Source of the DNA: Bradymonadia bacterium
GTDB taxonomy: Bacteria > Myxococcota_A > Bradymonadia > UBA7976 > UBA1532
Length of the DNA stretch: 64,000 bases
Direction: 5' to 3'
NCBI GenBank assembly: GCA_046290225.1
Contig: JBKAGE010000077.1
Location: forward strand, 64,001-128,000
In this document: in pieces, positions 13,901 through 34,341 of the stretch
Position numbering within the stretch: position 1 is the stretch's first letter
Layout of the letters: the number at the start of each line of letters is the position of its first letter
Translations under genes and position numbers: made by a program
Notes under the pieces: generated by a model
Databases searched by the model: none
The model's input: the letters and a program-made list of their open reading frames with translations, nothing else
Told to the model about the DNA's origin: nothing

Positions 13901-16900
13901 GCCATCAGCCTCAACGGAAGCGGCACCATGGTCCTTCTGGCCAACGGCGGCATCAAGGCCTGGGGCGGCAACGGCTTTGGTCAGCTCGGCCTCGGCGATC
14001 TGCTCGGCCGTGGGTTCCTCGCCGGCCACATGGGCCTCGGCCTGCCCCTGCTCGGCTTCGGTCCGGGCTTCTTCGCGGCGCAGATCTGCAACGCTGTGCC
14101 TGTGGGCCGGTTCTGCGCCGACACCGACGGCAACGGCATCTGTCAGGGCATCGACCTCTCGGGTACGGGCCTGGCGAACTGCGCCATCAGCGACGCCGGT
14201 GAGCTGAAGTGCTGGGGCTACAACGGCTTCGGCGGCCTCGGCCTCGGCGACATCCTCGACCGCGGTGGCAACCCTGGCGATCTCGGCGCCCTGGCGTCGA
14301 TCGATCTCGGCCCTGGCCGCACGGCAGTGCAGGTGGCCATCGGCGCCCTGCACGCCTGTGTGCTCATGGACAACGGTCAGGTGAAGTGCTGGGGCTTCAA
14401 CGCCCACGGCCAGCTTGGCCTCGGTGACGTGAGCATCCGCGGTGACGGCCCCGGCGAGATGGGCGTGGCCCTCGGCGCGGTCGATCTGGGCACTGGGCGC
14501 TTCGCCCAGCAAATCGTCGCCGGTACACATCACATGTGCGCGCTGCTCGACAACGGTGGGGTGAAGTGCTGGGGCCGCAACGACTTCGGTCAGCTGGGCC
14601 AGGGCCACACCGAGAGCTGCGGTGACGATCCGAACGAGATGGGCGACAACCTCGCCTACACGCTCCTCGGCGACAATCTGCACGTCATGCAGCTCGCCGC
14701 TGGGGCGAACCACACCTGCGCGATCTTGAACGACGGCTCGGTGAAGTGCTGGGGCTACAACGCCTTCGGCAACCTCGGCTACGGCTTCACCGATCACTGC
14801 GGTGACGAGCCCGGCGAGATGGGCAACGCCCTGCCCTTCACCCTCTTTGGCCTGGGCCGCTTCGCTCAGCAGATCAGCGCCGGCGCGCACCATACCTGTG
14901 TGCTGCTCGACGACGGCGGGGTGAAGTGCTGGGGCTTCAACAGCTTCGGCAACCTCGGCCTCGGCTTCACCGATCACTGCGGTGACAACCCCGGCGAGAT
15001 GGGCGATCTCCTCCCCTATGTGCAGCTCGGCGCTGGACGCTTCGTCGATATGGTCGTCGCCGGCGGCCACCACGTATGTGCGTTGCTCGACAACGGCGTG
15101 CTCAAGTGCTGGGGCGCCAACTTCAACGGCCAGCTCGGCCTCGGCGACTTCTTCAACCGCGGCGACGGCCCCGGCGAGATGGGTGACTTCCTGCCCGGCA
15201 TCAGCATCGGTGGCGGAGGCGGCATCGGCATCCGCGGCGGCGGCCTCAGCTTCGGCCGCGGTGGCGGCTTCGGCGGCTTCGGTGGCGGCGGTGGCGGCGG
15301 CGGTGGCGGTGGTGGCCTCAGCTTCGGTGGCGGCGGTGGCCGCAGCTTCGGCGGTGGCTTCGGTCGACGCATCGGTGGCAGCCGCATCGGCGGTCGCTTC
15401 GGTGGCGGCGGAGGTGGCGGCGGAGGCGGCGGTGGAGGCGGCGGTGGCGGCTTCGGCATCGGTGGCCTTGGCGGCGGCGGTGGCCTCAGCTTCGGCGGCA
15501 TCGGCGGTGGCAGCATCGGCGGCGGCGGTCTCCGGCTCAGCGCCGGGGGCACCATGGTGTTCCTCGACGACGGCAGCGTGCGGTGTTGGGGCGCCAACGG
15601 CTTCGGCGGCCTCGGCCTCGGCGACTTGCTCGGCCGCGGGTTCCTCCCTGGTCACATGGGCATCAACCTCGGCTCCATCGGGTTCCCCGTGGGCTTCGTC
15701 GTCGGCGAGATCTGCAACGCCGTGCCCATGGCGCTGTTCTGCAGCGACACTGACGGGAACGGCCTGTGTCAGGTCATCGACAATGCCGACAACGGCCTCT
15801 CTCAATGTGTCATCGGCGCCGATGGCGGCGTACGGTGTTGGGGCTTCAACGCCTTTGGTCAGCTGGGGCTCGGAGACATCCTCGATCGAGGTGACGGCTT
15901 CGGCGGCGCGGTGGCCAACCTGCCCGCCATCAACCTCGGCGTAGGCCGCATCGCCACTCAGGTGGTCACCGGCGCCGCCCACGGGTGTGCACTCTTGGAC
16001 AACGGCGGCATCAAGTGCTGGGGCTTCAATGGCCACGGTCAGCTCGGCCTCGGCGACGTGAACCTCCGCGGCGCCAACCCTGGCGAGATGGGTGACTTCC
16101 TGCCCTTCGTGAACCTCGGCACTGGCCGCACTGCTCTGCAGGTGGTCACCGGTGGCCATCACGTCTGCGCCATCCTCGACGATCGCGGGGTGAAGTGCTG
16201 GGGCCGCAACGACTTCGGTCAGCTCGGTCTCGGTGACGTGCTCGGCCGAGGCGGTATCCCCGGCCAGATGGGCGACGCTCTGCCCTATGTGCAGCTCGGC
16301 ACCGGCCGTACGGCGCTTCAGCTGAGCGCCGGCGCCAACCACACCTGCGCGATCCTCGACAACGGTGGCATCAAGTGCTGGGGCTACAACGCCTTCGGCA
16401 ACCTCGGCCTCGGCTTCACCGATCACTGTGGCGACGAGCCTGGCGAGATGGGCGACGCCCTGCCCTTCGTGCAGCTTGGCACCGGCCGCCTCGTGGGCCA
16501 GCTGAGCGCCGGCGCCAACCACACCTGCGCGGTGCTCGACGACGGCGGGGTGAAGTGTTGGGGCTTCAACAGCTTCGGCAACCTCGGCCTCGGTTTCACC
16601 GATCACTGCGGCGACAACCCCGGCGAGATGGGCGACGCCTTGCCCTACACCGGCCTCGGCGGCGGGGTCAGGGTCGACACCCTCGTCTGTGGTGGCCAGC
16701 ACAGCTGTGCCCTGCTCGACAACGGCTCACTCAAGTGCTGGGGCGCCAACAACCTCGGCCAGCTTGGCTACGGCGACGTGTTCCCCCGCGGCATCATCCC
16801 CGGTCAGATGGGCGACAGCCTCGGTGGCATCAGCCTCGGCGGCGGCTCCATCCGATCCGGCAGCGGCCTCGGCGGTGGCGGCGGTGGTGGCGGTGGTGGT

Positions 16901-18580
16901 GGTGGCGGTGGCCTCGGTGGTGCCGGCTTCGGCGGTGGCGGCATCGGCATCGGCGGCGGCGGTACCATGGCCGTCTTCGACAACGGCGCCATCAAGTGTT
17001 GGGGCGGCAACGGCTTTGGCCAGCTCGGCCTCGACGATGTGCTCTGTCGTGGATCCAACCCCGACGAGATGGGAGCCAACCTGTCCTCGGTCGACTTCGG
17101 TGAGGGCGGCTTCACGCCGGTGCACGCCAACGGCGAGATCGTATTGCCCCTGCCCGACTGTGACGATGCAGATGGCGATTTGCAGTGCGACGAGGACGAT
17201 CCCTGCCCGAACGACGCCGCCAACGACGCTGACGGCGACGGCATCTGCGGTGACGTGGACAACTGCCCCACCATCGCCAACGGCGATCAGGCCGACGACA
17301 ACGGCGACGGCTTCGGCGACGACTGCATCAGCCCGTCGGCCAACATCGATCCGTCGGCCAACATCGACGGTGACGTGATCATCGGGCCCAACGCCGAGAT
17401 CGGCCCCAACTGTCACATCGGCGACGGGGCGGTCATCAATGGCACCCTCGGCGACGGCGTGGTCGTTGGCCCCGGCACCGTGGTGAACGAAGGCGCGGTG
17501 GTCTCCGACGGCGCCCGCATCGGTGACAACTGCGGCATCGGTGCCAACTGCAACATCGGCGTGCTCGCCGAGATCGGCAACAACGTCACCCTCGGCGCGC
17601 GCTGCACCATCGGCGGCCGCGCCATCGTCGGCGACGGCGTCACCACCGACGTCGACATCGAGTTCGACGAGCAATGCCGCATCGGCGCATTCACCGAGGT
17701 GGGCGCCGAGTGCTACGTCGGGGTCAACACCAGCATCGGCGAGAACGGCGTCATCGACCGTGATTGCTGGCTGGGCCCGAACAGCCTCCTCGGCGACGAC
17801 TATGTCTTCGGCACCGACGCCTACTTCGAGGCCAATGTGCGGGTGAGCAACACCGCCACCTTCGGCAACAACGTACGCGTCCTCAGCTACGCCGTGGTGG
17901 GCGACAACGTCAGCCTCGACGATGGGGTGGAGCTCGCCTCTGGTGGTGAGGCCGGTGACAACACCGTCATCGGCGCCAACACCGAGATTCGTGGTCAGGT
18001 GGGCGCCGACGTCGTCATCGGCACCGACGCCTTCCTCGGCAACCAGAGCAGCTTCGGCGATGGCTGTGTGGTGGGCGATCGCGTGAGCACGGGCATCTTC
18101 GCCACCCTCGCCACGGGCTGCCAGATCGGATCCGACACGGCGATCTACGACGGGGTAGTCCTCGGCGCCAACGGTGTCATCGGCAACGAAGCCACGGTGC
18201 TCTTCTACTCGACCTTCGGCACCGACGCGAACGTCGGCGCCAACAGCTTCATCGACGAGCGAATCGAGGCGGGCAACAACTTCACGGTGGGCACCAACAG
18301 CCGCCTCTGGCCACGGAGCAGCTACGGCAACGGCATCAACATCGGCAACGACGTGTTGATCCGCGACACCGCCGACGTGGGCGATCGGGTCACCATCGAG
18401 AATGGCGTGATCATCTTCCCCAGCACCACCATCGGCGACGACGCCACGATCCGCGAGGGCGTGGAAATCGGCGTGGCCAACTGCCCGACGCAGCGCTGCG
18501 GTCAGGTCACCATCGGCGCTTGCCAGGATGTCGACGAAGACATGACACCGGTCTCCTCCTCGCCAGACACCTGCAACTGA
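7967..18580 (+). CDS. Giant secreted protein (3537 aa): six RCC1/BLIP-II repeat modules, Gly-rich inserts, TSP type-3 repeats, C-terminal left-handed beta-helix
   Basis: Signal peptide; dozens of HTCA-LDDGxVKCWGxNxxGQLGxG...EMGD repeats; DxDGD/DNCP repeats at about 9385-9545 and 17155-17330; hexapeptide [IV]GxN/D repeats at about 17330-18480. Confidence 0.93.
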   Translation: MAVNTAGRHMINHHALLRGFLALAVPTALFAVSHQTAEASIGLNSCAVDIDGQVKCWGFNNQGQLGYGDTVQRGDQAFEMGDDLPPVDLGPFGFAQQVASGFSHACVLLESNEVKCWGFNNQGQLGIGNTVNQGDGPNEMGNNLQAVDLGTDALVVQLSAANHHTCALFDDGFVKCWGSNTHGRLGVGDTNRRGDGPDEMGFDLPYVDLGFFDFATQIATGEGHNCALFEDGRVKCWGLNHLGQLGYGDTEWRGDDENDNEMGDDLPYVDLGTGRTATQVGTNSYSSCALLDNGQVKCWGANFAGQLGLGDTNNRGDGPGEMGDALPAVDLGPGRTALQIAMGYNHSCAILDDHTVKCWGENGDGQLGLGDTNDRGDGAGEMGASLPAVDLGFTAQIALINAGSGHTCALFVDETIKCWGKNLQGQLGYGNNGNIGDAPGEMGDDLDIVDLGFFFPMGLWDPIGPVGGGGGGNPDTDGDTVPDAQDNCPDIFNILQIDGDNDGIGDDCDICPEHADNDPDGDGVCAPVEPVGAGQSHCAIGANGEVKCWGFNAFGQLGQGDTTDRGDDPNELSAMPAVGLGNGRSGAQVVTGSAHACVLMDNGQVKCWGHNALGQLGLGDTENRGDAAGEMGDALASVDLGTGRFAQQVVSGASHVCALLDDGGIKCWGGNEFGQLGHGDTENCGDDPNEMGDNLIYTDLGADLTAVQLTAGANHTCAILNDGSVKCWGFNTYGNLGYGFTDHCGDNPNEMGDNLPFTVLGTDRTAGQITAGNDHTCAVLDNGGVKCWGFNTYGNLGYGFTDHCGDDPNEMGDALPYTNLGTNRLADMVAAGGHHTCAWLDDDSLKCWGLNHLGQLGYGDINSRGDEANEMGDNLPAVSLGGLLRSSVAGGGGGLSGPGGGGIGGGIEGGGPGLRVGGGISFGGVSGGGFGGGFSDAIGGVRVGVRGVGGSISLSSGATMVLLDDGGIKCFGDNEYGQLGYGDTTVRGNLPGQMGVNLPYVNLGGNFTGVQVCNSVPVGLFCADTDSNGLCDTVDLYGTGLTHCAISDAGALKCWGYNGFGGLGLGDILDRGDDANELQGLASIDIGNGRLAAQVVVGAVHTCALMDDGQVKCWGFNAHGQLGLGDVSHRGDGAGEMGNALASIHLGTGRFAQQIVSGAHHVCALLDNGGIKCWGRNDFGQLGQGHTDSCGDDPNEMGDNLAYTDIGDDLVAVQLTAGANHTCAILNDGSVKCWGYNAFGNLGYGFTDHCGDEPGEMGNALPFTVLGADRVAVQISAGAHHTCALLDDGGLKCWGFNTFGNLGLGFTDHCGDDPNEMGDNLPYVQLGAGRFVDLVAAGGHHACALLDNGVLKCWGANFNGQLGLGDFNHRGDNPNEMGDLLAGVDLGGLGIRTGLGGGGGGLRIGGGNGGDFGGVGGAGRGGILGFGGGGIGGRVGLGGAGGNGLGGGFSDAIGGVRVGVRGVGGSIGLSAGGTMVLLDDGSIRCWGANGFGQLGLGDRISRGFSAGQMGQNLPAVSLGFSVGNICNAAPVGRFCADTDGNGLCQDIDISGTGLANCTISDAGELKCWGYNGFGGLGLGDLLNRGGNPNDLAGLASVALGAGRTAVQVVQGAVHTCALLDDGTVKCWGFNAHGQLGLGDILSRGDNANEMGDALASIDLGAGRFVQQLVSGTHHVCALLDNGGIKCWGRNDFGQLGQGHTDSCGDDPNEMGDNLAYTDIGTDLVAVQLTAGANHTCAILNDGSVKCWGYNAFGNLGYGFTDHCGDDPNEMGDALPFTVLGTDRLAVQISAGAHHTCALLDDGGLKCWGFNSFGNLGLGFTDHCGDNPNEMGDNLPYVQLGAGRFVDLIAAGGHHACALLDNGVFKCWGANFNGQLGLGDFFNRGDGPNEMGDLLAGVDLGGVSIRTGIGGGGGGLRFGGGGGGDFGGVGGAGRGGILGFGGGGIGGRVGLGGAGGNGLGGGFSDAIGGVRVGVRGAGGAISLNGSGTMVLLANGGIKAWGGNGFGQLGLGDLLGRGFLAGHMGLGLPLLGFGPGFFAAQICNAVPVGRFCADTDGNGICQGIDLSGTGLANCAISDAGELKCWGYNGFGGLGLGDILDRGGNPGDLGALASIDLGPGRTAVQVAIGALHACVLMDNGQVKCWGFNAHGQLGLGDVSIRGDGPGEMGVALGAVDLGTGRFAQQIVAGTHHMCALLDNGGVKCWGRNDFGQLGQGHTESCGDDPNEMGDNLAYTLLGDNLHVMQLAAGANHTCAILNDGSVKCWGYNAFGNLGYGFTDHCGDEPGEMGNALPFTLFGLGRFAQQISAGAHHTCVLLDDGGVKCWGFNSFGNLGLGFTDHCGDNPGEMGDLLPYVQLGAGRFVDMVVAGGHHVCALLDNGVLKCWGANFNGQLGLGDFFNRGDGPGEMGDFLPGISIGGGGGIGIRGGGLSFGRGGGFGGFGGGGGGGGGGGGLSFGGGGGRSFGGGFGRRIGGSRIGGRFGGGGGGGGGGGGGGGGGFGIGGLGGGGGLSFGGIGGGSIGGGGLRLSAGGTMVFLDDGSVRCWGANGFGGLGLGDLLGRGFLPGHMGINLGSIGFPVGFVVGEICNAVPMALFCSDTDGNGLCQVIDNADNGLSQCVIGADGGVRCWGFNAFGQLGLGDILDRGDGFGGAVANLPAINLGVGRIATQVVTGAAHGCALLDNGGIKCWGFNGHGQLGLGDVNLRGANPGEMGDFLPFVNLGTGRTALQVVTGGHHVCAILDDRGVKCWGRNDFGQLGLGDVLGRGGIPGQMGDALPYVQLGTGRTALQLSAGANHTCAILDNGGIKCWGYNAFGNLGLGFTDHCGDEPGEMGDALPFVQLGTGRLVGQLSAGANHTCAVLDDGGVKCWGFNSFGNLGLGFTDHCGDNPGEMGDALPYTGLGGGVRVDTLVCGGQHSCALLDNGSLKCWGANNLGQLGYGDVFPRGIIPGQMGDSLGGISLGGGSIRSGSGLGGGGGGGGGGGGGGLGGAGFGGGGIGIGGGGTMAVFDNGAIKCWGGNGFGQLGLDDVLCRGSNPDEMGANLSSVDFGEGGFTPVHANGEIVLPLPDCDDADGDLQCDEDDPCPNDAANDADGDGICGDVDNCPTIANGDQADDNGDGFGDDCISPSANIDPSANIDGDVIIGPNAEIGPNCHIGDGAVINGTLGDGVVVGPGTVVNEGAVVSDGARIGDNCGIGANCNIGVLAEIGNNVTLGARCTIGGRAIVGDGVTTDVDIEFDEQCRIGAFTEVGAECYVGVNTSIGENGVIDRDCWLGPNSLLGDDYVFGTDAYFEANVRVSNTATFGNNVRVLSYAVVGDNVSLDDGVELASGGEAGDNTVIGANTEIRGQVGADVVIGTDAFLGNQSSFGDGCVVGDRVSTGIFATLATGCQIGSDTAIYDGVVLGANGVIGNEATVLFYSTFGTDANVGANSFIDERIEAGNNFTVGTNSRLWPRSSYGNGINIGNDVLIRDTADVGDRVTIENGVIIFPSTTIGDDATIREGVEIGVANCPTQRCGQVTIGACQDVDEDMTPVSSSPDTCN

Positions 18581-20672: not shown

Positions 20673-22016
20673 ATGCTCAAGCACGCCAGCGCCGTCGCCA
20701 TGGGCCTTACCCTTGCCCTGAGCACACTGGCCCATGGCCAGTTTGTAGGTGGTCAGGGGGCTCAAATCGCTGACGGACTTTATGATCCGATCAGCGTCAG
20801 CCATCCATCATGTGCACCGCTGGCGCCGCCAGCAGGGCCGACGATTCAGATCGGTCCGGCGAATGCGGACACGCTGCCCTCGACGATCCTCAACGCTGCG
20901 TCGGGCACGGTGATCGTTCTCGAAGATGGGGTCTACACGTTCAGCTTCCAGGACGAGGCCTCGCGCCGTCTGCGGTTCGAGACACCCAACGTCACCCTCA
21001 CCTCGTTGTCGCAAGATGCCACTCGGGTGATCATTGATGGTGAGTATCTCACCAACGAGATGGCGTACATCACCGCCTCGAACATCACGATCTCCCACAT
21101 CACCTTCACCCGGGCGGTGGATCACCTGATCCACCTCACGCCGACTACAGGGGTGAACTCGACGAACGTGAAGCTCTATGGGCTGCGCCTCATCGATTCG
21201 GGTGAGCAGTTCATCAAGGGCAACCCCAACCCCGGTCGTACAGCCTGGCCCGACGACACCGAGGTGGCCTGCTCGGTCTTCATGCTCACCGATGACGGTC
21301 GCCCCAACGTGTCGACAGCAGTGAACGGCTGCTACACCGGCGGCATCGATGTGCACGGCGGCCGTGACTGGCACGTCCACCACAACTACTTCGGTGGCAT
21401 CTACTGCAAGAACGGCTCACTGGCTGAGCACGCGGTGCACTTCTGGCGTGGGGCCCGCGACACCCTCGTGGAGCAGAACATCATCGTCAACGGCGCGCGA
21501 GGCATCGGCTTTGGTCTGGCGAGCACCGGTGAGACCCGGCCTTACAACGACAACCCCTGCCCGGGTGCCAACGGCGGCTACGTGGGCCACCACGGAGGCA
21601 TCATCCGCGGCAACATCATCTACGCCGAGCATGCGTACTACGACGCAGGCATCAGCCTCGAGCAGGCCTGCGGCGTCGAGGTGCTTCACAACACGGTCTT
21701 CGAGACGAGCGACGCCTCCAACGGCTTCTCGTCAATCGAGTACCGCTATGACAACACCGACGCGTTGATCCAGAACAACATCACCCGCTTGATTCGCCAG
21801 CGGAACAACGGCTCGGCGACGACGCTCAACAACATCCAAGACGCCAAGAGCAGCCTCTTCGTGCGCCCCGACGCACGGAAGCTCGGCTTCCAGCTGCGCG
21901 CCTCGGCCACCTCCGCGGTGAACCAGGGCGCAGCCACGGCCAACGCAGGTGTCGATCTCGAGGGCAACGCCCGCAACAACGGCAACCCCGACATCGGCGC
22001 CCTCGAGCGGCAGTGA
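20673..22016 (+). CDS. Secreted right-handed parallel beta-helix (pectin-lyase-like) protein
   Basis: Signal peptide; [11 protein letters not shown], Asn-ladder strands (VHHNYF, VEQNII, IRGNII, VLHNTV), C-terminal DLEGNAR...PDIGALE. Confidence 0.75.
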
Positions 22017-22027
22017 GGAGGCTGATC

Positions 22028-25000
22028 ATGAACCGCACATACATCTCTCGTAAGCGTTTGCTTCAAGCCCTCGCCGGCGCCTCGGTCATGGTGGCCACCT
22101 CGACAGCCTGGGCCACGATGGACCGCCACCACAGCTGTGTGGTGTCGACGACGGGTGCACTCTACTGCTGGGGCGCCAACGCCTCGGGCCAGCTCGGCCA
22201 GGGCGACGCCAACCTACGTGGTAACGATGCCAACGAGATGGGGGCCAACCTCTCCGCGGTGAGCCTGGGCACGGGCCGCACAGCCACCCGGGTGGCCATC
22301 GGCGACGATCACACCTGCGCGTTGCTCGACGACGCCTCGGTGAAATGCTGGGGTGACAACGCCTCGGGCCAGCTCGGACAGGGCAGCACCTCGACGCTGG
22401 GCGACGGCGCCAACGAGATGGGGGACAACCTCACCGCCGTCGATCTCGGCACTGGCCTCGCGGCGATGGCCGTGGCAGCCGGTAACACCCACTCCTGTGC
22501 GCTGATCACTGATGGCCGCGTGAAGTGCTGGGGGGCCAACGATTTTGGCCAGCTCGGCCTCGGTGACACCACCGTACGCGGCGACGACGCCAACGAGATG
22601 GGCGACAACCTGCCCTTCGTCGACCTCGGCACCGGCCGCACGGCGACGGCGCTGAGCGCTGGCGCCCATCACACCTGCGCGTTGCTCGACGACGCCTCGG
22701 TGAAGTGCTGGGGCGCCAATGATTTCGGCCAGCTCGGCCAGGGCAACACCGCGATCCGCGGTGATGACATCAACGACATGGGCGATCTGCTGCCCGCGGT
22801 GGCTCTCGGTACGGGCCGCACAGCCCTCGATCTCACCACGGGTGCAGATCACAGCTGCGCGCTGCTCGACAACGGCCGCCTCAAGTGCTGGGGCTACAAC
22901 GGCTCCGGGCAGCTCGGTCAGGGCGACACGGCCCACCGCGGTGACGGCGCCAACGAGATGGGCGACAACCTCGCAGTCATCGATCTCGGCGGCGCGGTGG
23001 GGGCAGGCCTCACGGTGCTGGCGGTGGCCGCCGGCGACGATCACACCTGCGCCCTGCGGGACGACAACACGGTGAAGTGCTGGGGTGCCAACATCTCGGG
23101 CCAGCTCGGCCTGGAGAGCACCGATACACTTGGTGACGCAGCCAACGAGATGGGCAACGCCCTCGCCACGGTCGACCTGGGTACGGGCCGTACTGCTGGT
23201 GCGCTCGGCGCCGGCTCGGATCACACCTGCGCGGTGCTCGACAACAACACACTGGTCTGCTGGGGCCTCAACCAGCACGGTCAGCTCGGTCAGGGCGTGA
23301 CCACCTGGTGGGGCGACGGGGCCGACGAGATGGGTGACGATCTCGTGGCGGTCTCCCTGAGCGGCACGCCCGAGCTGCCGATGAACTTCGGCGGCCTGAG
23401 CCGCTGCCCGGATCAAGATCTCGACGGGGTCTGTGACGCCGACGACAACTGTGTGGCCAACGCCAACCTGAACCAGGCCGATGCTGACGCTGACGGCCAG
23501 GGCGATGTCTGTGACGTCTGCCCCAACGACGCCAACGACGACGCTGACGGCGACGGTCTCTGCGCCGACGTGGACAACTGCCCTGGCGCAGCAAACGCCG
23601 CCCAGACCGACACCGACGCCGACAGTCTTGGTGATGCCTGCGATGTCTGCCCCAACGACGCCACGAACGATGCTGACGGTGATGGGGTCTGCCAAGATGT
23701 AGACAACTGCCCCGGCGTGGCGAACCCCAACCAGGAAGACAACAACGGCGACGGCTACGGCGATGCCTGTGTGAGCCTCGGGGCGAACATCCATCCCACG
23801 GCCACCCTGGGCAGCGCCGTCGTCGTGGGCAATGGGGTCACCCTCGGTCCCTACGCCGACGTTGGCGACGGTGCCACGGTTCTCGGTGACGTGGGCGACA
23901 ACAGCAGCATCGGTGCGGGCTCGGTGGTCGGCGCAGGCTGTGTGGTGGGCAACGCCGTCGTCCTCGGCGCCAACGTCTCCCTCGGCGCCAACTGTGTGGT
24001 CGACACCCTCGCCGAGATCGGCGCGGGCAGCAGCGTCGGCGTCGCCGGCAGCGTGGGCACGCAGAGCACTCTGGGCGCCAACGTCACTTTGGGTGACGGG
24101 GTCTCTGTCGGCGCCATCTCCCAGGTGGGCGACAATGGCAACTTCGCCGCCGGCTCATCTGTATCGCCAAACACCATCGTGGGCGCCAACGCTCAGGTGG
24201 GCACCAACAGCGCCATCAGTGGCAACGCCCGAGTGGGTGACGATCTCGTCCTCGGCGCCGATGCGGTCATCGGGCCCAACAGCATCATTGGCGATCGCGC
24301 CGCCTTCGGTGACAACACGTCCACTGAGGCCTACGCGGTCATCGGCAATGACTTCTCCATTGGCGCTGGCTCCGAGATGGCCTCGGGCGCCACAGCCGGT
24401 AACGATGTCAACATCGGCGCCGGCGTCGAGGTCCGTGGTGCCCTGGGCAACCGCGTGATTCTCGAAGACAACGTCTTTGTGGGCAACCAGAGCAACGTGA
24501 GCGACGACTGCCACCTGCAGACCAACGCGAGCCTGGGCATCTTCGTCGATCTCGGCACCAACTGCGCCATCAGCCCCGACGTGGCGATCTTCGATGGTGC
24601 AAGCCTCGGCGTCGACGCGGTCATCGGCGCTCGGACGACAATTTTGTTCCGCAGCACCCTCGGGGATCGTGCCGATGTGTCCACCGACACGATCATCGAC
24701 GAGCAGGTCACCATCGGCGATGACTTCACCCTCGGCGCAAACAGCCGCCTCTGGCCCCGAAGCACGTACGGCAACGACGTCACCATCGGCGCCAACACCC
24801 TCATTCGCGACACGGCGACTGTGGGCGATGGGGTCATCGTGGAGGACAACGTTCTCATCTACCCCGAGGTCAACATCGGGGATGAGACGATCATCCGCGC
24901 GAGCGTGGAGATTGGCGTGGAGACCTGTGCCACCCGCGTGTGTGGTCAGGTGGACATCGGCGGCTGCCTCGACGTGAACGCTGATCAGGCACCGGGCACG

Positions 25001-25678
25001 ACCCTCGCTGGCCAGTGCGAGGCGACGATCGTGGTGAACGGCGCGAGCCGCAACTGGTCCGATGGCACCTACGCCACGGCCTGTCACGACTACCGCTACC
25101 CCGACGGGGTGGACTACGTGTACGGCGGCGCCACTGGTGATGGCCGCTACACCATCGACACCGACGGCAGCGGCGGCGACGCGCCCTTCGATGTGTACTG
25201 CGACATGACGACTGATGGTGGTGGTTGGACTCTGGTGGACAACGACGCCACCAACGCTGGCACCTTCGGCTCACGTACTCTGGGTGCCAACACCGACATC
25301 AACACCACCCGCGGCGCGGTGCTGCCGTCCTACGACTGGTCGGCCAGCCCCCAGCTGCTCTGCAAGTCGAGCCGCTTCACGGGCACGCTGCCCTGGCTCA
25401 CCTTCAACGTCGTCTCTGCATCAGGCCGCAACTACCCCACGACGACGACGATTGCTGCAGCTGGCTCCGGCGGTCACTTCTCCTACGCCAACCTCAACGG
25501 AAACACCGCTCGAGGCACGGCGGCCTGGATCTACGTGGGCAATGGCCGCTTCGGTTCGGTCTGGATCGGCGCCGGCAGCAACAGCACCTGCTCGTGCAAC
25601 TACGGCAGCGGTCGCCACACCGGCCTGGGCACCTACGGCCCGGGTACCTCTGCAACCTGTAGCACCTGGGTTCGCTAG
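22028..25678 (+). CDS. Secreted RCC1-repeat + TSP3 + left-handed beta-helix + fibrinogen-related C-terminal domain protein
   Basis: GAGGAGG SD before ATG 22028 (alternative GTG 22013). RCC1 repeats, DxDxDGxGDxCD repeats, hexapeptide repeats, and [15 protein letters not shown] (fibrinogen-like). Confidence 0.9.
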
Positions 25679-25765: not shown

Positions 25766-26062
25766 AGAGAGTTTTTCGGGCACGGGCACGGGCACGGGCA
25801 CGGGCACGAGTTGATACATACTCTGACCCGTGGCCTTGCCTGAGTTCAGGGCGAAGATTGTCATTACAACTGAGATGGTGAGCTTCAGCACAGCCTGAGA
25901 ATTCAGGTCTTGGGGGGTATGGAGGAGGTCAGAACCTCCACTGAGAAAAGCGTGGGGCTGAGTAGAGCCTCCACCACCATAAACCTACGAGCGGAGCCAT
26001 GCTGGGCTACGGGTCAGAGTATGTATCAACTCGTGCCCGTGCCCGTGCCCGAAAAACTCTCT
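25766..26062. repeat. Inverted-repeat element with (GGGCAC)n arms around a structured ~170-nt spacer
   Basis: 25766-25835 and 26005-26062 are reverse complements, apart from 5 vs 3 GGGCAC copies and one wobble. Lies between convergent genes. Confidence 0.85.
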
Positions 26063-26663
26063 ACCGCTGGTTATCAGCAGACACCCCAAAGAGCCAAGCG
26101 ATGTTCGCTCGGGGCTGATGACAGTTGATGCAGAAGTCGACCTGGCCAGTGAACGACGCAGTCCCATCATTCTCGATGCGGGCCCACCACCAGTCCTCAG
26201 CACCGTTGTCGAAGCCCTCGCCCACCTTGGCCATCACCGTCAGAGCGGTGGGATCACCGTCAGCGTTGAACTGAGGTTTGACGAGCATTGCCCCAGCGGG
26301 GATGTCGAAGTCGCCCTCGGTAGCCTCCGGATCGATGCCGCGGTAGACATCGACGATGTCGTTGCTCACCCAGTAGTCCACCATATCGCCACCATGCTGC
26401 GACATGCGGCGCTCGCTGTTGATCTGGGTGAAGCCCTCGTCCTGGTAGGCCACAGCCCGGGCCACGAAGGCAGCCTCGTCGAGGCCACCGCCAGCACCGC
26501 CCTCAGGGGTGCCGCCCATGGCCTCGCCGCCGGCGCCGCCCATGGCTTCTCCGCCCGAGCCGGCCTCTCCACCACCATCATCGTCGTCGCCACCACAGGC
26601 GAAGAGGGTCAGGCTCAGCGAGGCGATCAACAGTCGATTCCAGCGGCGTTCAACGATGCGCAT
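26061..26663 (-). CDS. Cytochrome P460/c'-beta-like lipoprotein (200 aa)
   Basis: AAGGAG SD; lipobox LFAC; P460-type pattern PAGAMLVK...LTVMAK...DWWWA...FCINCH with a C-terminal CxxCH. Confidence 0.75.
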   Translation of the reverse strand: MRIVERRWNRLLIASLSLTLFACGGDDDDGGGEAGSGGEAMGGAGGEAMGGTPEGGAGGGLDEAAFVARAVAYQDEGFTQINSERRMSQHGGDMVDYWVSNDIVDVYRGIDPEATEGDFDIPAGAMLVKPQFNADGDPTALTVMAKVGEGFDNGAEDWWWARIENDGTASFTGQVDFCINCHQPRANIAWLFGVSADNQR

Positions 26664-27795
26664 GATGGCTCCTTTTATCGGGTATGCCACAGGCAGTGAA
26701 GGCCTTGGCAAAGGCCTGCCTGCCTCGGGCGTCGAGATGGTTGTAGAGGAAAGCCCGGCCGTCGCACATCGCGTCGGCGTGTTGCCTCACCCCCTTGTCG
26801 TCAGAGGTGAGGGCACACTGGAGGTCAAAGCGCCCCAAGGGCACCTCTCGCTCAGGGCATTGGAACTTCGTGCCTTTGTCGGTGGTGATGCGCTGCACCT
26901 CGGCGCCGCTCGGACACGTCACCGAAACACACGGATCAGCAGCGTTGGGATCGTCGGGCCGATAGCCCTCCAACGGCGCGTGATCCACCAACAAGGTCTT
27001 GGGCGTGAAGAAGCCCACGGCGTCGGTGCCGCGGTTCACATTGATGGGCGATGGCCCCGTGGTGATCTCAGGGCGATGGCTGGTGTGACAGCCAGCACAA
27101 TCCGAGCGGGCGCGGTACACCTTGATGGCCTTCTTCCGCCGCTTGGGACGGGTCTTCCATGGGAAGCCGACGCCCTGGCGCATCGCACCGTAGATCGCCT
27201 CGTGCACCTGCCCTTTGACCGCCTGATCGCCTCGAAGCCAGGTGTAGCCGAACAGATCCGCCTCTGCTCCAGGGCCCACAGGCCGGAACACGCGGAAAGT
27301 CTGAGCCCCGTCAGCACCGATCTCGGTGCCGCGTACATCGGCCACCCGGTAGGGCGCCTGCGCCTTGGGTCGCCAGTACTCCACCCGATCGGAGATTGTG
27401 CCCTTCGGGTAGTCGAGGGTCAGCTGACCATGAGGACCTTCCACTGTCTTGATCACACCATCCTTGGGGATCTTCAGCCAGATACGGGTGGTGGAGCGGC
27501 CCCCGGTTCCGCCGGGCAAGTGCACTGGCGGTGTCAGAGAGACGAACCCCTGATCAGCCCACCATGTCTGCTGGCCAGAGATGATCGTCGCCCCTTCTGG
27601 AGGCGCGGGCGACCCGTGGTCATGACTGTGATCGCCATGATCATGACTGTGATCTCCATGGTCATGCCCATGACCATCGTGCTCGTGGCTTCCACCGGCG
27701 CTGATGAAGTACGCGCCGACGAATGCGCCGATACACACCGCGGCGACACCGAGCATCTTCGCCAGGGTGGCAGCATCTCGGCCCGGACCGCTCAC
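26650..27795 (-). CDS. Membrane-anchored protein with a His-rich tract and one CxxCH (putative c-type cytochrome)
   Basis: N-terminal TM helix, HEHDGHGHDHGDHSHDHGDHSHDH (11 His), CAGCH, further Cys near the C-terminus. Overlaps the downstream gene by 14 nt. Confidence 0.6.
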   Translation of the reverse strand: MSGPGRDAATLAKMLGVAAVCIGAFVGAYFISAGGSHEHDGHGHDHGDHSHDHGDHSHDHGSPAPPEGATIISGQQTWWADQGFVSLTPPVHLPGGTGGRSTTRIWLKIPKDGVIKTVEGPHGQLTLDYPKGTISDRVEYWRPKAQAPYRVADVRGTEIGADGAQTFRVFRPVGPGAEADLFGYTWLRGDQAVKGQVHEAIYGAMRQGVGFPWKTRPKRRKKAIKVYRARSDCAGCHTSHRPEITTGPSPINVNRGTDAVGFFTPKTLLVDHAPLEGYRPDDPNAADPCVSVTCPSGAEVQRITTDKGTKFQCPEREVPLGRFDLQCALTSDDKGVRQHADAMCDGRAFLYNHLDARGRQAFAKAFTACGIPDKRSHHAHR

Positions 27796-27796
27796 C

Positions 27797-28546
27797 TCAA
27801 CGCTCCGGAGCAGGCCAGCGGGCCTCGATGTCGGCGATGACCGGAGATCCGAGGATGCCCGCGCGCTTCAGCTCGAGGGCCGCCTCGACGAGGGCCTTCC
27901 GAGATACACCCGCCTGAGCACAGACCTCGGCGTTGGCCTCTTCGTTCGCCCAGGCGAACGCCACCAGCATGGGCAGGGTGGGCTGGATGAACCGCACCAT
28001 GCGATCGCTGGGGCGCCGGTAGAACAAGATGGTCACCGGCGTCGGCTTCAGCGGGATATCACGGCCACTCTTGATGCCTCGGATATAGCCCGGCACCGTA
28101 TGGGTGTAGGCTCGGATGCTCGCCGTGGGGTTCACGACGTCGGCTTCTACGTCGAAGGGTCGCGTGTCACGGGTGGTCGTGTAGTAGAGATACTCGTAGT
28201 CGGCGATTTGAGCCCACAGCTCACGGGCTTCGAGATCAGTCTGCTCGATGAGCCAACCGGCAAAGCCTTCACCGAAGACGTTGAGATCCCAGTGGCTGCT
28301 GGGTCGCCCGAGGGCATAGGTGTCCACGAGAGCCCGCCAGGCCTTTCGCTCACCCACAGCCTGCTCTACGCCGGGATACAGGTAGCCCATGATCCGCCGA
28401 TGGTTGGCGCGGATCAGCTGCGCATAAAAGGCGATGTGATCATCACGAGAGGGCGAGTCGCCGAGGCGTTGCTGCAGCTCGGCAGGATCAATCTCTCCGC
28501 GCAGGAACGGCACCATGGCGTCGAAGAACTGCTGCAGGTTGCTCAC
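27797..28546 (-). CDS. MNIO partner protein (DUF2063 / HvfC-BufC-like)
   Basis: Coupled to the DUF692 gene by a GTGA overlap. N-terminal LQQFF...Y...YPGV...W..LV..Y....PS...DLN.FG..F pattern. Confidence 0.75.
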   Translation of the reverse strand: MSNLQQFFDAMVPFLRGEIDPAELQQRLGDSPSRDDHIAFYAQLIRANHRRIMGYLYPGVEQAVGERKAWRALVDTYALGRPSSHWDLNVFGEGFAGWLIEQTDLEARELWAQIADYEYLYYTTTRDTRPFDVEADVVNPTASIRAYTHTVPGYIRGIKSGRDIPLKPTPVTILFYRRPSDRMVRFIQPTLPMLVAFAWANEEANAEVCAQAGVSRKALVEAALELKRAGILGSPVIADIEARWPAPER

Positions 28547-29379
28547 GCCTCACCCCCAACGGCCTCGGGCGTGGCGAACTTTTGCCAGATGGCCCGGGCC
28601 TTGTCGGCCTCGTCGATCACGCGATCGAGGGGCGGGATCTCCATGTCCCACTCGATGAGGGTGGGGGCTGGCCCCGTGCGGTGCAACGCCTCGCTGTACA
28701 TCTGCCACACCGGATCGATCACCGGGCTGCCGTGGTTGTCCACGGCGAGATCTCCGACATACTTGTGGCCGGCGAGGTGAATACGCCCGGTCTTCTCCAA
28801 GGGCAGAGCCTGTAGATCAGCATGGGCGTCGGTGCCGTGGTTGTGGGCGTTCACGTACACATTGTTCACGTCGAGCATCAGGCCGCAGCCGGCCTCTTCG
28901 ATGACCGTGGTGACGAACTCACCTTCAGTCATCTCGGCGCCGGGCATGATGGCGTAGGTGCTCACGTTCTCGAGCAGGATCGGGCGCTCGAGCATCTCCT
29001 GCACCTGCTTGACCCGTCGGGCGATGTGCAACGCCGCTTCGTGGGTAAATGGCAGGGGCAGGAGGTCATAGAAATTTTGACCGTGGGCCGTGGCGAAGCA
29101 CAGATGCTCGGTGAACACCGGCACGCCGAGCCGATCGAGCAGGGCTTTCACCAGCTCGATGTGACCCCGGTCAATCGGATCAGGCCCACCGAGGGACATG
29201 GACACGCCGTGCACCCCAATGGGCCAGCGCTCGGCGCAGGCGTCGAGGGTCTTGCCCCCGACGCCGCCGTTGGCGATGAAGTTCTCGGGAATGATCTCCA
29301 ACCAGTCGATCTGTCGATCAGTCTTCTGGATGCTGGAGAAATGCTCCCGCCTCAGGCCAATGCCCACTCCCTCTTCCAT
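28543..29379 (-). CDS. Multinuclear non-heme iron-dependent oxidative enzyme (MNIO, DUF692/UPF0276)
   Basis: GIGLRREH, WLEIIPENF, HGVSMSLGG, TEHL, DLLPLP, LLENVS, LDVNNVYVN, IHLAGH, DNHG, LIEWD: the expected iron-ligand motifs appear intact. Confidence 0.95.
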   Translation of the reverse strand: MEEGVGIGLRREHFSSIQKTDRQIDWLEIIPENFIANGGVGGKTLDACAERWPIGVHGVSMSLGGPDPIDRGHIELVKALLDRLGVPVFTEHLCFATAHGQNFYDLLPLPFTHEAALHIARRVKQVQEMLERPILLENVSTYAIMPGAEMTEGEFVTTVIEEAGCGLMLDVNNVYVNAHNHGTDAHADLQALPLEKTGRIHLAGHKYVGDLAVDNHGSPVIDPVWQMYSEALHRTGPAPTLIEWDMEIPPLDRVIDEADKARAIWQKFATPEAVGGEA

Positions 29380-29385
29380 GGACGC

Positions 29386-29850
29386 TTACTCCTCGCCCTC
29401 GTCACCGGGGCAGCCCGAGGGACAGCCGGCCTCGCCACCCTCGCCATCGTCGGGGCAACCAGCGGGGCAACCCGCCTCGCCGCCCTCACCGTCACCGGGG
29501 CAACCACCGGGGCAGCCGGCCTCACCACCGGCGGGGCAACCTGCAGGACAGCCTGCATCACCACCGGCTGCGGGGCAACCAGCGGGGCAACCGGCAGGGC
29601 AGCCCGCAGGGCAGCCTGCGTCACCACCAGCTGCGGGGCAACCGCCGGGGCAGCCAGCCTCACCACCGGCGGGGCAGCCTGCGGGGCACCCGGCCTCACC
29701 GCCCATGGCCTCACCGCCGCTGCCGGCTGCGGCCTCACCACCGCTGCCGCCGCTGCCGCCATCATCATCATCGTCACAGCCACCAGCGGCGAGGCCGATG
29801 CCGCCAGAAAGCAGAGCCATAGCCAGGATCTTGGAGGTCGACTTGAACAT
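29386..29850 (-). CDS. Cys/Gly/Pro-repeat lipoprotein (154 aa); putative RiPP precursor/substrate of the MNIO
   Basis: Signal peptide ending LAAGG|C, acidic tether, then 16 GCP motifs in (E/D)AGCP(A/G/S)GCP units. Ends 6 nt upstream of the MNIO ATG. Confidence 0.85.
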   Translation of the reverse strand: MFKSTSKILAMALLSGGIGLAAGGCDDDDDGGSGGSGGEAAAGSGGEAMGGEAGCPAGCPAGGEAGCPGGCPAAGGDAGCPAGCPAGCPAGCPAAGGDAGCPAGCPAGGEAGCPGGCPGDGEGGEAGCPAGCPDDGEGGEAGCPSGCPGDEGEE

Positions 29851-29952
29851 ATTTACTTCCCCATATGGTCGTTATTGCACTGCGCTCGGGACGTCAGGCC
29901 CCTGGCGATGTGTACATGACATCGGGCTTCACAGCACAGTGCTAGGGAAAGA

Positions 29953-29979
29953 TACGTGGGGTGGAAAAAAGGTGTTACA
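29953..29979 (-). promoter_or_regulatory. ECF sigma-type promoter upstream of the MNIO operon
   Basis: Minus strand TGTAACA-N16-CGTA, about 100 nt before the precursor ATG. Close to the GTAACC-N16-CGAA SigF/ECF16-type consensus as recalled. Confidence 0.55.
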
Positions 29980-30191
29980 ACTGTTTTGTTTTTTTGCTGA
30001 AACAGCACAAAAAACGAGTTGAACCTGTATCAAAGGCGCAAATTTAGCGGGTACGAATATGTTGGCAAATCACTCAACGTGAAGTCCATTTCAATTATTC
30101 GGACTCGTCATTGCGTTTACCTTGATGATTGAGCACACACCAAAGTGCAGCTGTGTGGCAGGCAGGTTGCACCGATCATCGGAGCGCGTGC

Positions 30192-32212: not shown

Positions 32213-32731
32213 TCAGCCTGGTGATTTGATCACATACCCGGGATGCATCCGCCCCGTAGGGGGATAGAGCGCATGCTCGGTGTATCGAAAGCCCAGACCG
32301 ACGAGCATCTTCTTCGAGCTCTGATTGTCTGGGTGATGCCCGGCGAACACCGCTGAGGCACCATAGACCTCGAAGGCATGTTCGAGCACGCTCTGCGCAG
32401 CCTCTCGTGCAAAGCCGAGGCCCCAGTGTGCTGGCCTCAAGTGCACCCCGAACTCCACCACGTTCTTCTCAAGATCATGAGGCCGCAGCCCGGCACAGCC
32501 GACGTGTGCCCCACTCTCCCGATGAAACATCGGCCAATACTGGATCCCGTGCTCGACCTGGCTCTCGATGTGCCCTTGAAGCATGGCGCTCACCTCGCCC
32601 ACATCGAAGTGCCCTCGAGCGCTGATGAGCGCGGCCACACGCGGATCACCCCACAGCCCCTGGGCAAGGTCCAGATCATCTACACGCCAGAGCCGAAAGG
32701 CCAGTCGAGGGGTCGGTGATGGATGCTTCAC
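32213..32731 (-). CDS. GNAT acetyltransferase, RimJ/RimL-like
   Basis: TPRL, EFGVHL...WGLGFAREAA, N..S..ML..LGF. GTG start overlaps the HTTM gene stop. Confidence 0.85.
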   Translation of the reverse strand: MKHPSPTPRLAFRLWRVDDLDLAQGLWGDPRVAALISARGHFDVGEVSAMLQGHIESQVEHGIQYWPMFHRESGAHVGCAGLRPHDLEKNVVEFGVHLRPAHWGLGFAREAAQSVLEHAFEVYGASAVFAGHHPDNQSSKKMLVGLGFRYTEHALYPPTGRMHPGYVIKSPG

Positions 32732-34341
32732 TTGCTCCGCAACGGGCCGGCCTTTGCCTTCCAGCTGTAGATCTTTCGTTTGCGCTCGAAGATCGGCGCG
32801 TCGCCTGTGCCCGGAGCCGGGCTGACGTCCGAGATCCACCAGGCGGTGAAGGCCACCACGTCTTTACCGGGCGGGATCAAACCACGCTGATGCTCGCCGT
32901 TGGCGAACCACACAGCCCACTTGGCGAACAAGTGCTTCTGGAACTGCAGGCGGAACATCAGGTTCTCTTCGTAATGGGTCCAGTGCCGGAGCCGGGCATC
33001 GGCCATCTGGTCGAGGTTGGGCACCTCACCTGTTCGGGGGTCGATGTGGGTGCCGTCGTCGAGCTCGGCGTCGACGATCATCCACCCATCTTTCACCGGC
33101 GCGTCAGGGGCGAAGAGCTGCCAGCCCTGCTGGAAGTCACCGTAGTGAGAGAAGGTGTTCGCCCACGTGGGCATCTTGTGATCGGGGAACGTCTTCCTCA
33201 GCGCCCGGTTTTGGTCCATGGCCCGATGGAAGCACGACAAGAAGGCCACGACCACGAAGACCTGGGCCGCCCAGAACCGCACCGGATGGTGCTTGGGGCT
33301 GTCGGGTACCTCAATGTCGCGTACATGGGTGTGGGCCTCGAGCCAGAGCCCTACGGATCGCATGGCCCCTTCAATGGCCAGCCAGGCACCCCCGAGCTTG
33401 CCGGCGAGCCAGCGGCCGAAACGGCCGAGCAGATCGCAGTCCTGCGAGGTGAGCAGCAACATGTACGACACCGACATCATGTACGAGAACAGGCTCAGAT
33501 CGGTCACCGCGGCGATGCTCAGGTGCAGCCCGATGAGGCTCACCACAAGCACTCGACGACACCAGACCACGGCGAAGGGGGACCAGATCAGAATCGGCGC
33601 CAGGCCCTCGACGATGAGCGTGCCCCAGCTCATGGCCCACAGCACGCTCATGGGGGCCCAGCCCCGGAACCAGAAGCCGAAGTCGGTGAGGATTCGATCC
33701 TGGTGCAGCAGCCAGTAGACCGCTTCGCCCTTCATCCAGGTGTCGCCGGTCTTGTGGATGGTGTTGAAGAAGTAGATGACCGCCAACTGCATCATGAAGC
33801 CGGTGATGGCGAGGCTGCGGATGGGGGCCCGCAGCGTCTCAAGGGGCACGCCCTTTCGGGCAGCGAGCCACGCATCGACTGACCAGCTGCGCCCCAGGGG
33901 CAGGGCGATCGTCCACAGCCACCAGAGGTTGTGCACGATGTCGGCGCCGATGTGCACCACCCAGTTCCGGTTGTGGATGCTGATCATGCAGATCATGCCC
34001 AGCACCTGAAACAGGCGGGTGCGCCAGCCGGCGACAAAGGCCATCAAGATGCCCGCGGTGGCGAGGAAGAAGACCTTCACCTCCCAGACCTCGTCGAGCA
34101 TGTAGAGCAGGCTCAGGCGCTGGGGGCCCTCCCCGGTCATGTAGAGGGCGTAGTGGTTCGGCAGCACACCTTCGTTGGTGTAGAGCATGGCGATATGGGG
34201 CCATCGCTGCCAGAGGTCGATGAGACACAGCAGCCCGAAGGCCACCCGGAACACCGCCAGAGATCGCGGATCCACCGTGATCCAGGCCCGCCAGTTGAAG
34301 ATGCTCTTCTTCACCACCCCGTTCTCCACGCTCGCGTTCAT
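32728..34341 (-). CDS. HTTM-domain membrane protein (vitamin K-dependent carboxylase-like family)
   Basis: DPRSLAVFRVAFG, LYTNEGVLP, HNRN, WSVD, YFFNTIHK...W..G, QGWQLFAP; multiple TM helices. Confidence 0.85.
   Translation of the reverse strand: MNASVENGVVKKSIFNWRAWITVDPRSLAVFRVAFGLLCLIDLWQRWPHIAMLYTNEGVLPNHYALYMTGEGPQRLSLLYMLDEVWEVKVFFLATAGILMAFVAGWRTRLFQVLGMICMISIHNRNWVVHIGADIVHNLWWLWTIALPLGRSWSVDAWLAARKGVPLETLRAPIRSLAITGFMMQLAVIYFFNTIHKTGDTWMKGEAVYWLLHQDRILTDFGFWFRGWAPMSVLWAMSWGTLIVEGLAPILIWSPFAVVWCRRVLVVSLIGLHLSIAAVTDLSLFSYMMSVSYMLLLTSQDCDLLGRFGRWLAGKLGGAWLAIEGAMRSVGLWLEAHTHVRDIEVPDSPKHHPVRFWAAQVFVVVAFLSCFHRAMDQNRALRKTFPDHKMPTWANTFSHYGDFQQGWQLFAPDAPVKDGWMIVDAELDDGTHIDPRTGEVPNLDQMADARLRHWTHYEENLMFRLQFQKHLFAKWAVWFANGEHQRGLIPPGKDVVAFTAWWISDVSPAPGTGDAPIFERKRKIYSWKAKAGPLRSK

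Follow-up and report, generated by a model that had tools for sequence, protein, structure and literature searches.

The gene at 29386..29850 on the minus strand of the window (the whole 64,000-nucleotide stretch of Bradymonadia DNA analysed here) encodes a predicted lipoprotein precursor of 154 amino acids that carries an array of Gly-Cys-Pro (GCP) motifs. It is the first of five co-oriented genes; those after it encode an MNIO, its DUF2063 partner and, last, two CxxCH proteins. These five tightly packed genes form one operon, which recurs in 14 loci. The GCP family is real, conserved and apparently undescribed, and what it adds to the lipidation and repeats already known is a putative Cys–Pro substrate and a coupling to predicted P460-fold cytochromes. 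By analogy with characterised systems, the balance tips modestly toward a lipidated product of the captophorin type, in which the cysteines would be converted to copper-binding 5-thiooxazoles. The predicted membrane-tethered copper binder likely works with the two co-encoded, predicted haem c proteins.

The precursor and its operon

Translation of the precursor gene gives a signal (residues 1–24, predicted SPII), a lipobox-like LAAGG-C with Cys25 directly after the hydrophobic stretch, an acidic Gly-rich tether (26–53) and 16 GCP motifs between residues 54 and 148. The count of 17 cysteines given in the initial annotation, one in the lipobox and 16 in GCP motifs that fall into seven blocks (six doublets and one quadruplet), is exact. 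Residues 25–154 consist of G, A, C, P, E, D and S with a single M, and include no basic or aromatic residue. Its mature part lacks Lys and all 16 motifs have Pro at +1, so the precursor is indeed unlike the EGKCG types. In 20,000 shuffles of the mature sequence, the mean number of GCP motifs was 0.71 and the maximum 5. The array is also the only one in the genome (8.58 Mb, six frames), where 8 of the 13 GCPxGCP matches belong to the precursor and the remaining 5 are isolated single doublets at other sites.

The SPII site is predicted from the sequence pattern and from family conservation. An equivalent lipobox-type Cys is present in the 34 family sequences described below (it was a selection criterion for 21 of them), and the genome encodes Lgt along with cytochrome c assembly proteins. 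A GGGAAG element lies upstream of the precursor ATG; a promoter and terminator scan gave counts at chance level. The precursor matched no family in Pfam or NCBIfam. A homologue search returned 0 of 8,000 candidates at E ≤ 0.001, a kind of search that low-complexity sequence defeats, and the ESM Atlas gave no usable feature match, its structure rows being disregarded as based on a model with a pLDDT of 0.38. The tether stretch GSGGEAMGG, with two occurrences in the genome, is common to the precursor and the cytochrome lipoprotein of the operon, a likeness that is weak evidence because GGEAMGG is also found in an unrelated ORF on contig C41.

The genes of the operon are separated, in order, by a 6 nt gap, a 4 nt overlap, a 1 nt gap and a 14 nt overlap. 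The predicted modifying enzyme, an MNIO of 278 aa (DUF692/PF05114; 28543..29379, minus strand; PF05114 E 2.8e-102), has the precursor 6 nt upstream and belongs, by its profile scores, to the bufferin/HvfB branch. It scores 319.7 bits against the NCBIfam BufB model NF050167 (cut-off 310) and lies below the cut-off of HvfB (298/360 bits) and far below those of ChrH (NF050165; 52.3/600) and MbnB (45/325). Its highest scores are thus on the bufferin and HvfB models; the BufB cut-off was reached by 3 of the 9 GCP-linked MNIOs scanned. Residues H57, H92, E137, D170, N173, H201, D214, H216, E243 and D245 are conserved in the alignment, and we take these to be the putative iron ligands and base. D245 is assigned by analogy as the catalytic Asp, matching FonB Asp249. 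The middle position of the D-x-H motif, flanked by two predicted iron ligands, is N or D in 9 of the 13 GCP-linked MNIOs and T in 32 of 32 other MNIOs. The DUF2063 (PME type 1) partner of 249 aa (27797..28546, minus strand) has a start that overlaps the MNIO stop by 4 nt; it matches PF09836 at E 9.6e-10 (39.1 bits, cut-off 27.2) and scores 26 bits against HvfC (NF050145), far under the cut-off of 142.

There are three further full-length MNIOs in the genome, and the two that are precursor-linked each have their own precursor. One lies beside an EKSCSG/EKGCSG-repeat lipoprotein precursor (L155:5773-6249, contig C40) and another beside a Buf1-like precursor and a divergent sigma-factor-like gene (L156:5962-6432, C82), both typed by eye; at the third locus (L157:4845-5714, C79) no precursor was seen. 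Elsewhere in the window are a 3,537-aa ORF (7967-18580, plus strand), a 1,221-aa multi-repeat secreted protein (22013-25678, plus strand) and an HTTM-domain membrane protein (32728-34341, minus strand), with no link to the cassette seen for any of them.

Recurrence of the cassette and the conserved motif

An MNIO is adjacent to the precursor in 13 of the 14 GCP-precursor loci, and a contig edge ends the 14th (G402). Short proteins with a signal, a lipobox and at least three GCP motifs adjoin an MNIO wherever the contig allows, which supports the original reading of the window protein as an MNIO precursor. A finding that GCP-repeat proteins occur mostly without DUF692 genes had been named beforehand as one that would speak against this reading, and the survey gave the reverse. 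The gene for the 381-aa protein, one of the two CxxCH proteins, is present in 13 of the 14 loci; among the five loci that were not found via this protein, four carry the gene and the fifth is a 1.9 kb contig. A P460-like domain is present in all 11 loci with contigs that reach far enough, and both haem proteins accompany the cassette in 11 of the 11 loci long enough to show both.

The cassette is patchy and occurs in 9 of the 401 genomes of the phylum sample. One genome among 60 relatives (G019) has all five genes, with an MNIO 68% identical. A profile search with the 381-aa protein matched 12 of the 401 phylum genomes, 11 of them strongly, including the window genome; in the regions fetched, the ten other strong matches comprise seven with an MNIO and a GCP precursor, one with a GCP precursor at a contig end and two with neither. 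A pattern search matched 58 of the 401 genomes, and the 80 loci examined from the phylum pattern and profile searches are a part of all matches. The DNA-pattern scan of GTDB, which is a sample and no census, gave at least 120 loci, mostly off-frame or palindromic repeats. A crude signal and lipobox filter passed 4 of the 120 listed, and two of these (L059, a Myxococcota record, and L073) both adjoin an MNIO and supplied two further loci. The other two, L083 and L117, were unconvincing, neither had an MNIO, and they were set aside. Two more loci (L183 and L191) came from 24 metagenome MNIO loci. A precursor profile search found 49 matches in 1.84 billion representatives, of which 21 were judged by eye to be proteins with a signal, a lipobox and GCP motifs; these are sequences without genomic context. 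The family set then comprises 34 sequences, the window precursor and 33 of the same build.

Several neighbouring or related genes were noted in the course of this survey. An ECF sigma factor adjoins the cassette at L191 and L059, in one case with a Pfam-confirmed NrsF, and a LysR regulator adjoins it at four loci; the window operon is without an adjacent ECF/NrsF pair. In a selected subset of 47 locus proteins scanned around cassettes there was no copper-resistance gene, no DoxX and no nitrogen-cycle gene. Homologues of the 381-aa protein without an MNIO within 13 kb are found at L171:6038-7054 and L179:5898-7118, one of them beside sulfur-transport and rhodanese genes. P0015 and P0016 are also homologues of this protein, and one database homologue is from Bowmanella. 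In the G019 precursor (L151:8935-9309) an 18-residue Arg-rich stretch breaks the repeats, where the DNA is the usual repeat in a shifted frame; this looks like two compensating indels, real or assembly-derived.

The 13 GCP-linked MNIOs form one group in the enzyme tree (1 change, with 0 of 500 label shuffles as low; support 74/85), and an inner set of 11 has support of 92/89. The tree has 51 rows, is unrooted and was built without characterised reference enzymes; L156 (long branch) and L192, L195, L197 and L199 (near-copies) were left out and L191 was included. Support for the grouping, which appears in 74% of bootstrap trees, is moderate. The GCP-linked enzymes are separated on the tree from the rows linked to Buf1 and Buf2; L184, an enzyme of EKSCG type, branches right next to the GCP-linked group.

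Across the 34 sequences, 255 core cysteines were surveyed. Ala stands at −2 in 208 and Gly at −1 in 253, with Glu or Asp three residues before Cys in 104. Position +1 is Pro in 235 and Ala, the commonest alternative, in 18; the frequency of GCP is partly circular because a GCP-built profile supplied 21 of the 34 sequences, chosen by eye from 49 matches. By comparison, Pro stands at +1 of none of the 76 cysteines in 15 xKCG/xSCG-type precursors from related genomes. Across the family the conserved unit is a single A-G-C-P and not a CPxGCP pair. Doublets occur in 10 of the 34 sequences, and the 24 without a CxxGCP doublet have a single AGCP every 5–9 residues (CAGCP in one). The Cys spacing ranges across the family from 3 to 11 or more and the number of core cysteines from 2 to 17. 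Two features in the initial annotation, the CPxGCP pairs and the lack of basic residues, are correct for the window precursor and do not extend to the family, in which some members (L183 and L176) carry Lys.

In 7 of the 34 sequences the array is fused to a P460-like cytochrome domain. Such a fusion fixes the GCP reading frame and links the functions of array and cytochrome. It is scarcely credible, then, that the precursor ORF is the antisense shadow of a plus-strand Gly-Gln-Pro repeat gene (29198-30022) or a non-coding repeat. A 274-aa plus-strand ORF with GQP repeats does overlie the region, and most of the GTDB DNA-pattern matches listed are of the off-frame or palindromic kind. However, the uninterrupted GCP frame of the homologues takes in a signal peptide and a lipobox-type Cys, and in the seven fusions the cytochrome domain as well; the window precursor is co-oriented with the MNIO and has GGGAAG upstream of its ATG.

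Some variation in architecture was seen around the family. P0019 extends the GCP precursor by a Cys-rich segment at the C-terminus, and P0021 is a lipoprotein that combines GCPGYCPSTQA repeats with an unrelated C-terminal domain. Upstream ORFs at L190, L193, L194, L196 and L197 encode Ala/Pro-rich MNIO-linked lipoproteins ending in GGCGAGSC or GACGAGSC, and L185:2548-3930 represents a long MNIO precursor type with NHSCGAQPG-like repeats. The signal peptides of many members (e.g., L059:3946-4197 and L174:5602-5976) have an acidic residue within an L/I-L/V-E-A-like motif. A loose pattern finds this motif in 26 of 34 sequences, the window precursor being without it; an acidic residue is unusual for a signal, and the motif is a candidate partner-recognition site.

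Two large protease-like lipoproteins (L234:2769-5264 and L251:1531-4668) combine an N-terminal part that looks trypsin-like by eye with domains rich in Cys and, internally, a (GGCPN)6-7 linker; the 6–9 kb fetched around them contain no MNIO. GCP repeats that serve as linkers in MNIO-free lipoproteins fit the idea that the GCP cysteines stay unmodified, leaving a thiol-rich metallothionein-like or disulfide-linked lipoprotein and an MNIO that acts on rare Cys-Ala sites or on another substrate. The intolerance of the FonBC pair for Pro (PMC13097082) could be cited in its favour as well. This reading is nevertheless very improbable: Cys-Ala sites are absent from the window precursor and many others in which the active-site residues of the MNIO are still conserved, and the grouping of the enzymes in the tree tracks precursor type.

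The two CxxCH proteins

The initial annotation of the array made no mention of the two predicted P460-fold cytochrome genes that accompany it, with fusion to the array often seen. The better defined of the two proteins is a predicted lipoprotein (26061..26663, minus strand), which is 200 aa long when read from the ATG at 26663 and contains a haem c domain of the P460/c'-beta fold. Its score against PF16694 (E 1.7e-5, 25.7 bits) is under the cut-off of 27. In its model the P460/c'-beta fold with a C-terminal CxxCH is clear, with VIA matches to 8brk (Z 10.8, rmsd 2.9, 120 residues aligned) and 6hiu (Z 9.6) and a Foldseek match to 7s5o at E 1.3e-4. A profile alignment, itself weak, places K129 opposite Lys78 of McP460 and Phe61 of TtCP-beta. 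Lys occupies the P460 cross-link position in 16 of 16 domains, so the lipoprotein appears to keep the Lys of a putative covalent haem link. The distal carboxylate position (Glu96/Asp102) is Thr142 in the lipoprotein and is Asp or Glu in 0 of 16 domains. An S-x-H is invariant in these domains, and an invariant His lies near the distal cap position.

The 381-aa protein (26650..27795, minus strand) is unannotated and has no match in Pfam. It has an N-terminal hydrophobic helix, a His-rich linker and a beta-sheet domain with a CxxCH (C233, C236, H237), which is invariant in 15 of 15 aligned homologues; four more Cys are conserved beyond the CxxCH. Its AlphaFold model (pLDDT 84) has as its five best VIA matches only P460 or c'-beta cytochromes, at Z only 4.9–5.4 (rmsd 4.0–4.6, 109–129 residues aligned). 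Foldseek returned nothing at E ≤ 0.001 for the same model, and the Atlas neighbours have TM values of 0.4–0.46. On this model the protein is a probable divergent P460/c'-beta-fold cytochrome c. The linker, an HDHGDHS repeat at residues 40–64 between the helix and the cytochrome domain, is absent in 14 aligned homologues and is a possible extra metal-binding segment. A complex prediction for the two cytochrome domains with haem scored 0.01 against a mark of 0.32.

The physiological roles of P460/c'-beta cytochromes are largely unknown; cytochromes c'-beta are proposed NO-stress proteins, and in the P460 cytochromes a distal carboxylate tracks with hydroxylamine oxidation (PMC11928373). The lipoprotein of the operon shares with this group (PF16694; PMC11928373) the fold, the C-terminal CxxCH and the Lys at the cross-link position, and the 381-aa protein has a CxxCH and may share the fold. 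The two proteins differ from the group in their predicted lipid or membrane anchors and in being encoded in an MNIO cluster or fused to its precursor, and the lipoprotein differs in its missing distal carboxylate and invariant S-x-H. A thiooxazole array might serve mainly as the metal-bearing arm of a haem redox module directed against NO, hydroxylamine or peroxide rather than as a stand-alone copper sink. The fusions in 7 of 34 sequences, the Lys in 16 of 16 domains, the invariant His near the distal cap and the proposed NO-stress role of the c'-beta proteins (PMC11928373) would all suit such a module. It is still quite unlikely, given that the carboxylate that tracks with hydroxylamine oxidation is missing in all 16 domains, that most precursors are unfused and that nitrogen-cycle genes were not among the scanned neighbours.

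Known systems and the chemistry of a Cys–Pro substrate

Judged from sequence, the GCP system is like the captophorins and the DAG-RiPPs. The captophorins comprise oxazolin (HvfABC), fontiphorin (FonABC) and gonophorin (NgoABC), with EGKCG repeats (PMC13097082). The GCP system displays three genetic features of this class, namely an MNIO of the same branch with conserved metal-site residues, an adjacent DUF2063 partner and a Cys-rich precursor with a predicted signal peptide next to the MNIO. Also in common are tandem Cys-motif repeats and a Glu or Asp often found three residues ahead of Cys. It differs in its A-G-C-P motif, in having no DoxX in the operon and in its two predicted P460-fold cytochrome genes, with frequent fusion to one of them. 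With DAG-RiPPs, in which the lipidated MNIO precursors DybA and NedA have already been described (PMC13056109), it shares a lipobox Cys and a lipoprotein signal on an MNIO precursor. Triacylation of the modified product is predicted here from the sequence pattern, whereas lipidation has been shown for DybA and NedA.

The window precursor is, by the same kind of comparison, not of the oxazolin, Buf1/Buf2 or chryseobasin type. In contrast to oxazolin and Buf_EGKCG precursors it has no repeated Lys-Cys-Gly, and its MNIO is below the HvfB cut-off. The bufferins Buf1 (DUF2282) and Buf2 (6/12-Cys) have in common with it a BufB-level MNIO, a DUF2063 partner and predicted export (PMC11626156, PMC12452194), and the ECF sigma/NrsF pair that adjoins some GCP loci is the regulator type of Caulobacter bufferin operons (PMC11626156). 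The precursor matches no DUF2282 profile, however, and has the low complexity of a repeat, without a confident fold or a 6/12-Cys domain. A precedent for joining a precursor to a cytochrome, though of a different fold, is found in the Buf1–Cytochrom_C (PF00034) fusions listed by Antoine et al. With chryseobasins (ChrA/ChrH, CPACG) the doublets share a CPA triplet and two nearby Cys. The chryseobasin Cys are spaced as CxxC whereas those of GCP precursors are CxxxC or single, the DUF2063 partner is separate here, the CPxCGxG motif is absent from the window precursor and the MNIO is far from ChrH.

The literature considered, mostly open-access and including 10.64898/2026.06.05.730506 and 10.64898/2026.07.17.739211, contains in its available text no GCP-repeat MNIO precursor and no MNIO with P460. 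The string GCP has 0 occurrences in the main texts of PMC12452194, PMC13056109 and PMC13097082, and the precursor clusters described in the DAG-RiPP paper include chryseobasin, bufferin, oxazolin and CxxxxC types (PMC13056109). Two supplementary files of PMC12452194 gave 0 matches to family terms, and accession lists could include unnamed members. Hundreds of unassigned Cys-containing signal-peptide ORFs precede such MNIOs (Antoine et al.), so GCP family members may stand unnamed in published lists.

The MNIO–DUF2063 pairs BufBC, FonBC, HvfBC and NgoBC make 5-thiooxazoles and so yield copper-binding products (PMC13097082; PMC11626156). The hallmark of this modification in captophorins is a loss of 4 Da per Cys with absorbance at 302–305 nm, and the ring uses the carbonyl that precedes Cys (PMC13097082). 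It follows that Pro at +1 does not forbid a 5-thiooxazole. The route to the ring is stated to be open, via an azetidinone or directly from a thioaldehyde; the azetidinone is the first ring in the route proposed to the oxazolone–thioamide and in one of the two proposed to the 5-thiooxazole, and its formation deprotonates the C-terminal N-H (PMC13097082). This N-H is absent when Pro is at +1. The constraint that the initial annotation drew from Pro agrees with these published routes. The FonBC authors lean to the azetidinone route, which would explain a preference for small residues at +1; FonBC accepts Pro at no motif position, and Ala was the sole substitution accepted at +1 in the double-variant panel (PMC13097082). 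Ala is also the residue that most often replaces Pro in the GCP family, which favours the captophorin reading. If the azetidinone route is obligatory, Cys–Pro cannot yield a 5-thiooxazole.

An MNIO that modifies GCP cysteines in another way is also conceivable, for example through a thioaldehyde trapped by the thiol of a neighbouring Cys to give small sulfur-linked rings, loosely as in ChrH/DybH, which the haem proteins might complete after export. No 5-thiooxazole would form in this case, the amide after Cys being unusable with Pro. Along with the rejection of Pro by FonBC (PMC13097082), the N or D in D-x-H of 9 of 13 GCP-linked MNIOs (T in all 32 others), the two extra haem proteins in all 11 sufficiently long loci and the CPA with which ChrA-type substrates likewise begin (PMC13056109) point this way. 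We consider it unlikely. A Cys spacing of 3 to 11 or more, with 24 of 34 sequences lacking a doublet, is ill-suited to a fixed two-Cys ring, and all the characterised MNIO–DUF2063 systems considered here give 5-thiooxazoles (PMC13097082). ChrH and DybH use amide N-H groups after Cys, and DybH chemistry consumes the N-H of the residues following Cys (PMC13056109), which Pro in GCP does not have at +1. The Cys spacing and the enzyme score (52 bits with the ChrH model, cut-off 600) led us to reject ChrH-type macrocyclisation as the chemistry of the family.

For the preferred reading, a lipidated captophorin-type product, the sequence of events may be outlined as follows. In the cytoplasm, the MNIO–partner complex would process the repeats one after another, at −4 Da per Cys, each ring being closed with the carbonyl of the Gly that almost always precedes Cys. 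Since +1 is Pro, the closure would proceed by direct attack on the thioaldehyde and not via the azetidinone, by an MNIO clade presumably adapted to Gly-Cys-Pro. After export by Sec, transfer of a diacylglyceryl group to Cys25 and cleavage by signal peptidase II would leave an acidic, probably unfolded array anchored outside the cytoplasm. Like those of bufferins and fontiphorin, the rings may take up Cu(I)/Cu(II) present in excess, and 16 rings could hold several ions. More speculatively, the P460-fold cytochromes, separate or fused, might manage the oxidation state of copper held by the array or act in linked NO or peroxide stress. The fullest form of this idea, a RiPP–haemoprotein hybrid in which an MNIO clade able to heterocyclise Cys–Pro, a reaction beyond known enzymes, builds a copper-loaded thiooxazole chain on or beside a Lys-cross-linked P460-type cytochrome, would make the system a membrane-anchored copper–haem redox device rather than a passive sink; we regard it as doubtful.

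A natural, obligatory-looking Cys–Pro substrate makes the stated mechanistic question testable and would decide the 5-thiooxazole route. If its product is a 5-thiooxazole then the direct route works, and a different product would mean a reaction new to MNIOs. The family also connects a predicted MNIO product with predicted P460/c'-beta-fold cytochromes, and in the fused forms the haem protein would itself be an MNIO substrate. A Pro-tolerant thiooxazole-forming enzyme, if confirmed, would allow wider peptide engineering.

Cys–Pro is not unique to the GCP clade because a separate, well supported MNIO group with mixed precursors has Pro after 11 of 46 Cys. This group is a possible second origin of Cys–Pro substrates. 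Acidic Cys-rich lipoprotein precursors with GCPS, SCEG and ACDG motifs lie beside MNIOs of this separate group at L015:2388-2879, L019:989-1438 and L020:946-1404.
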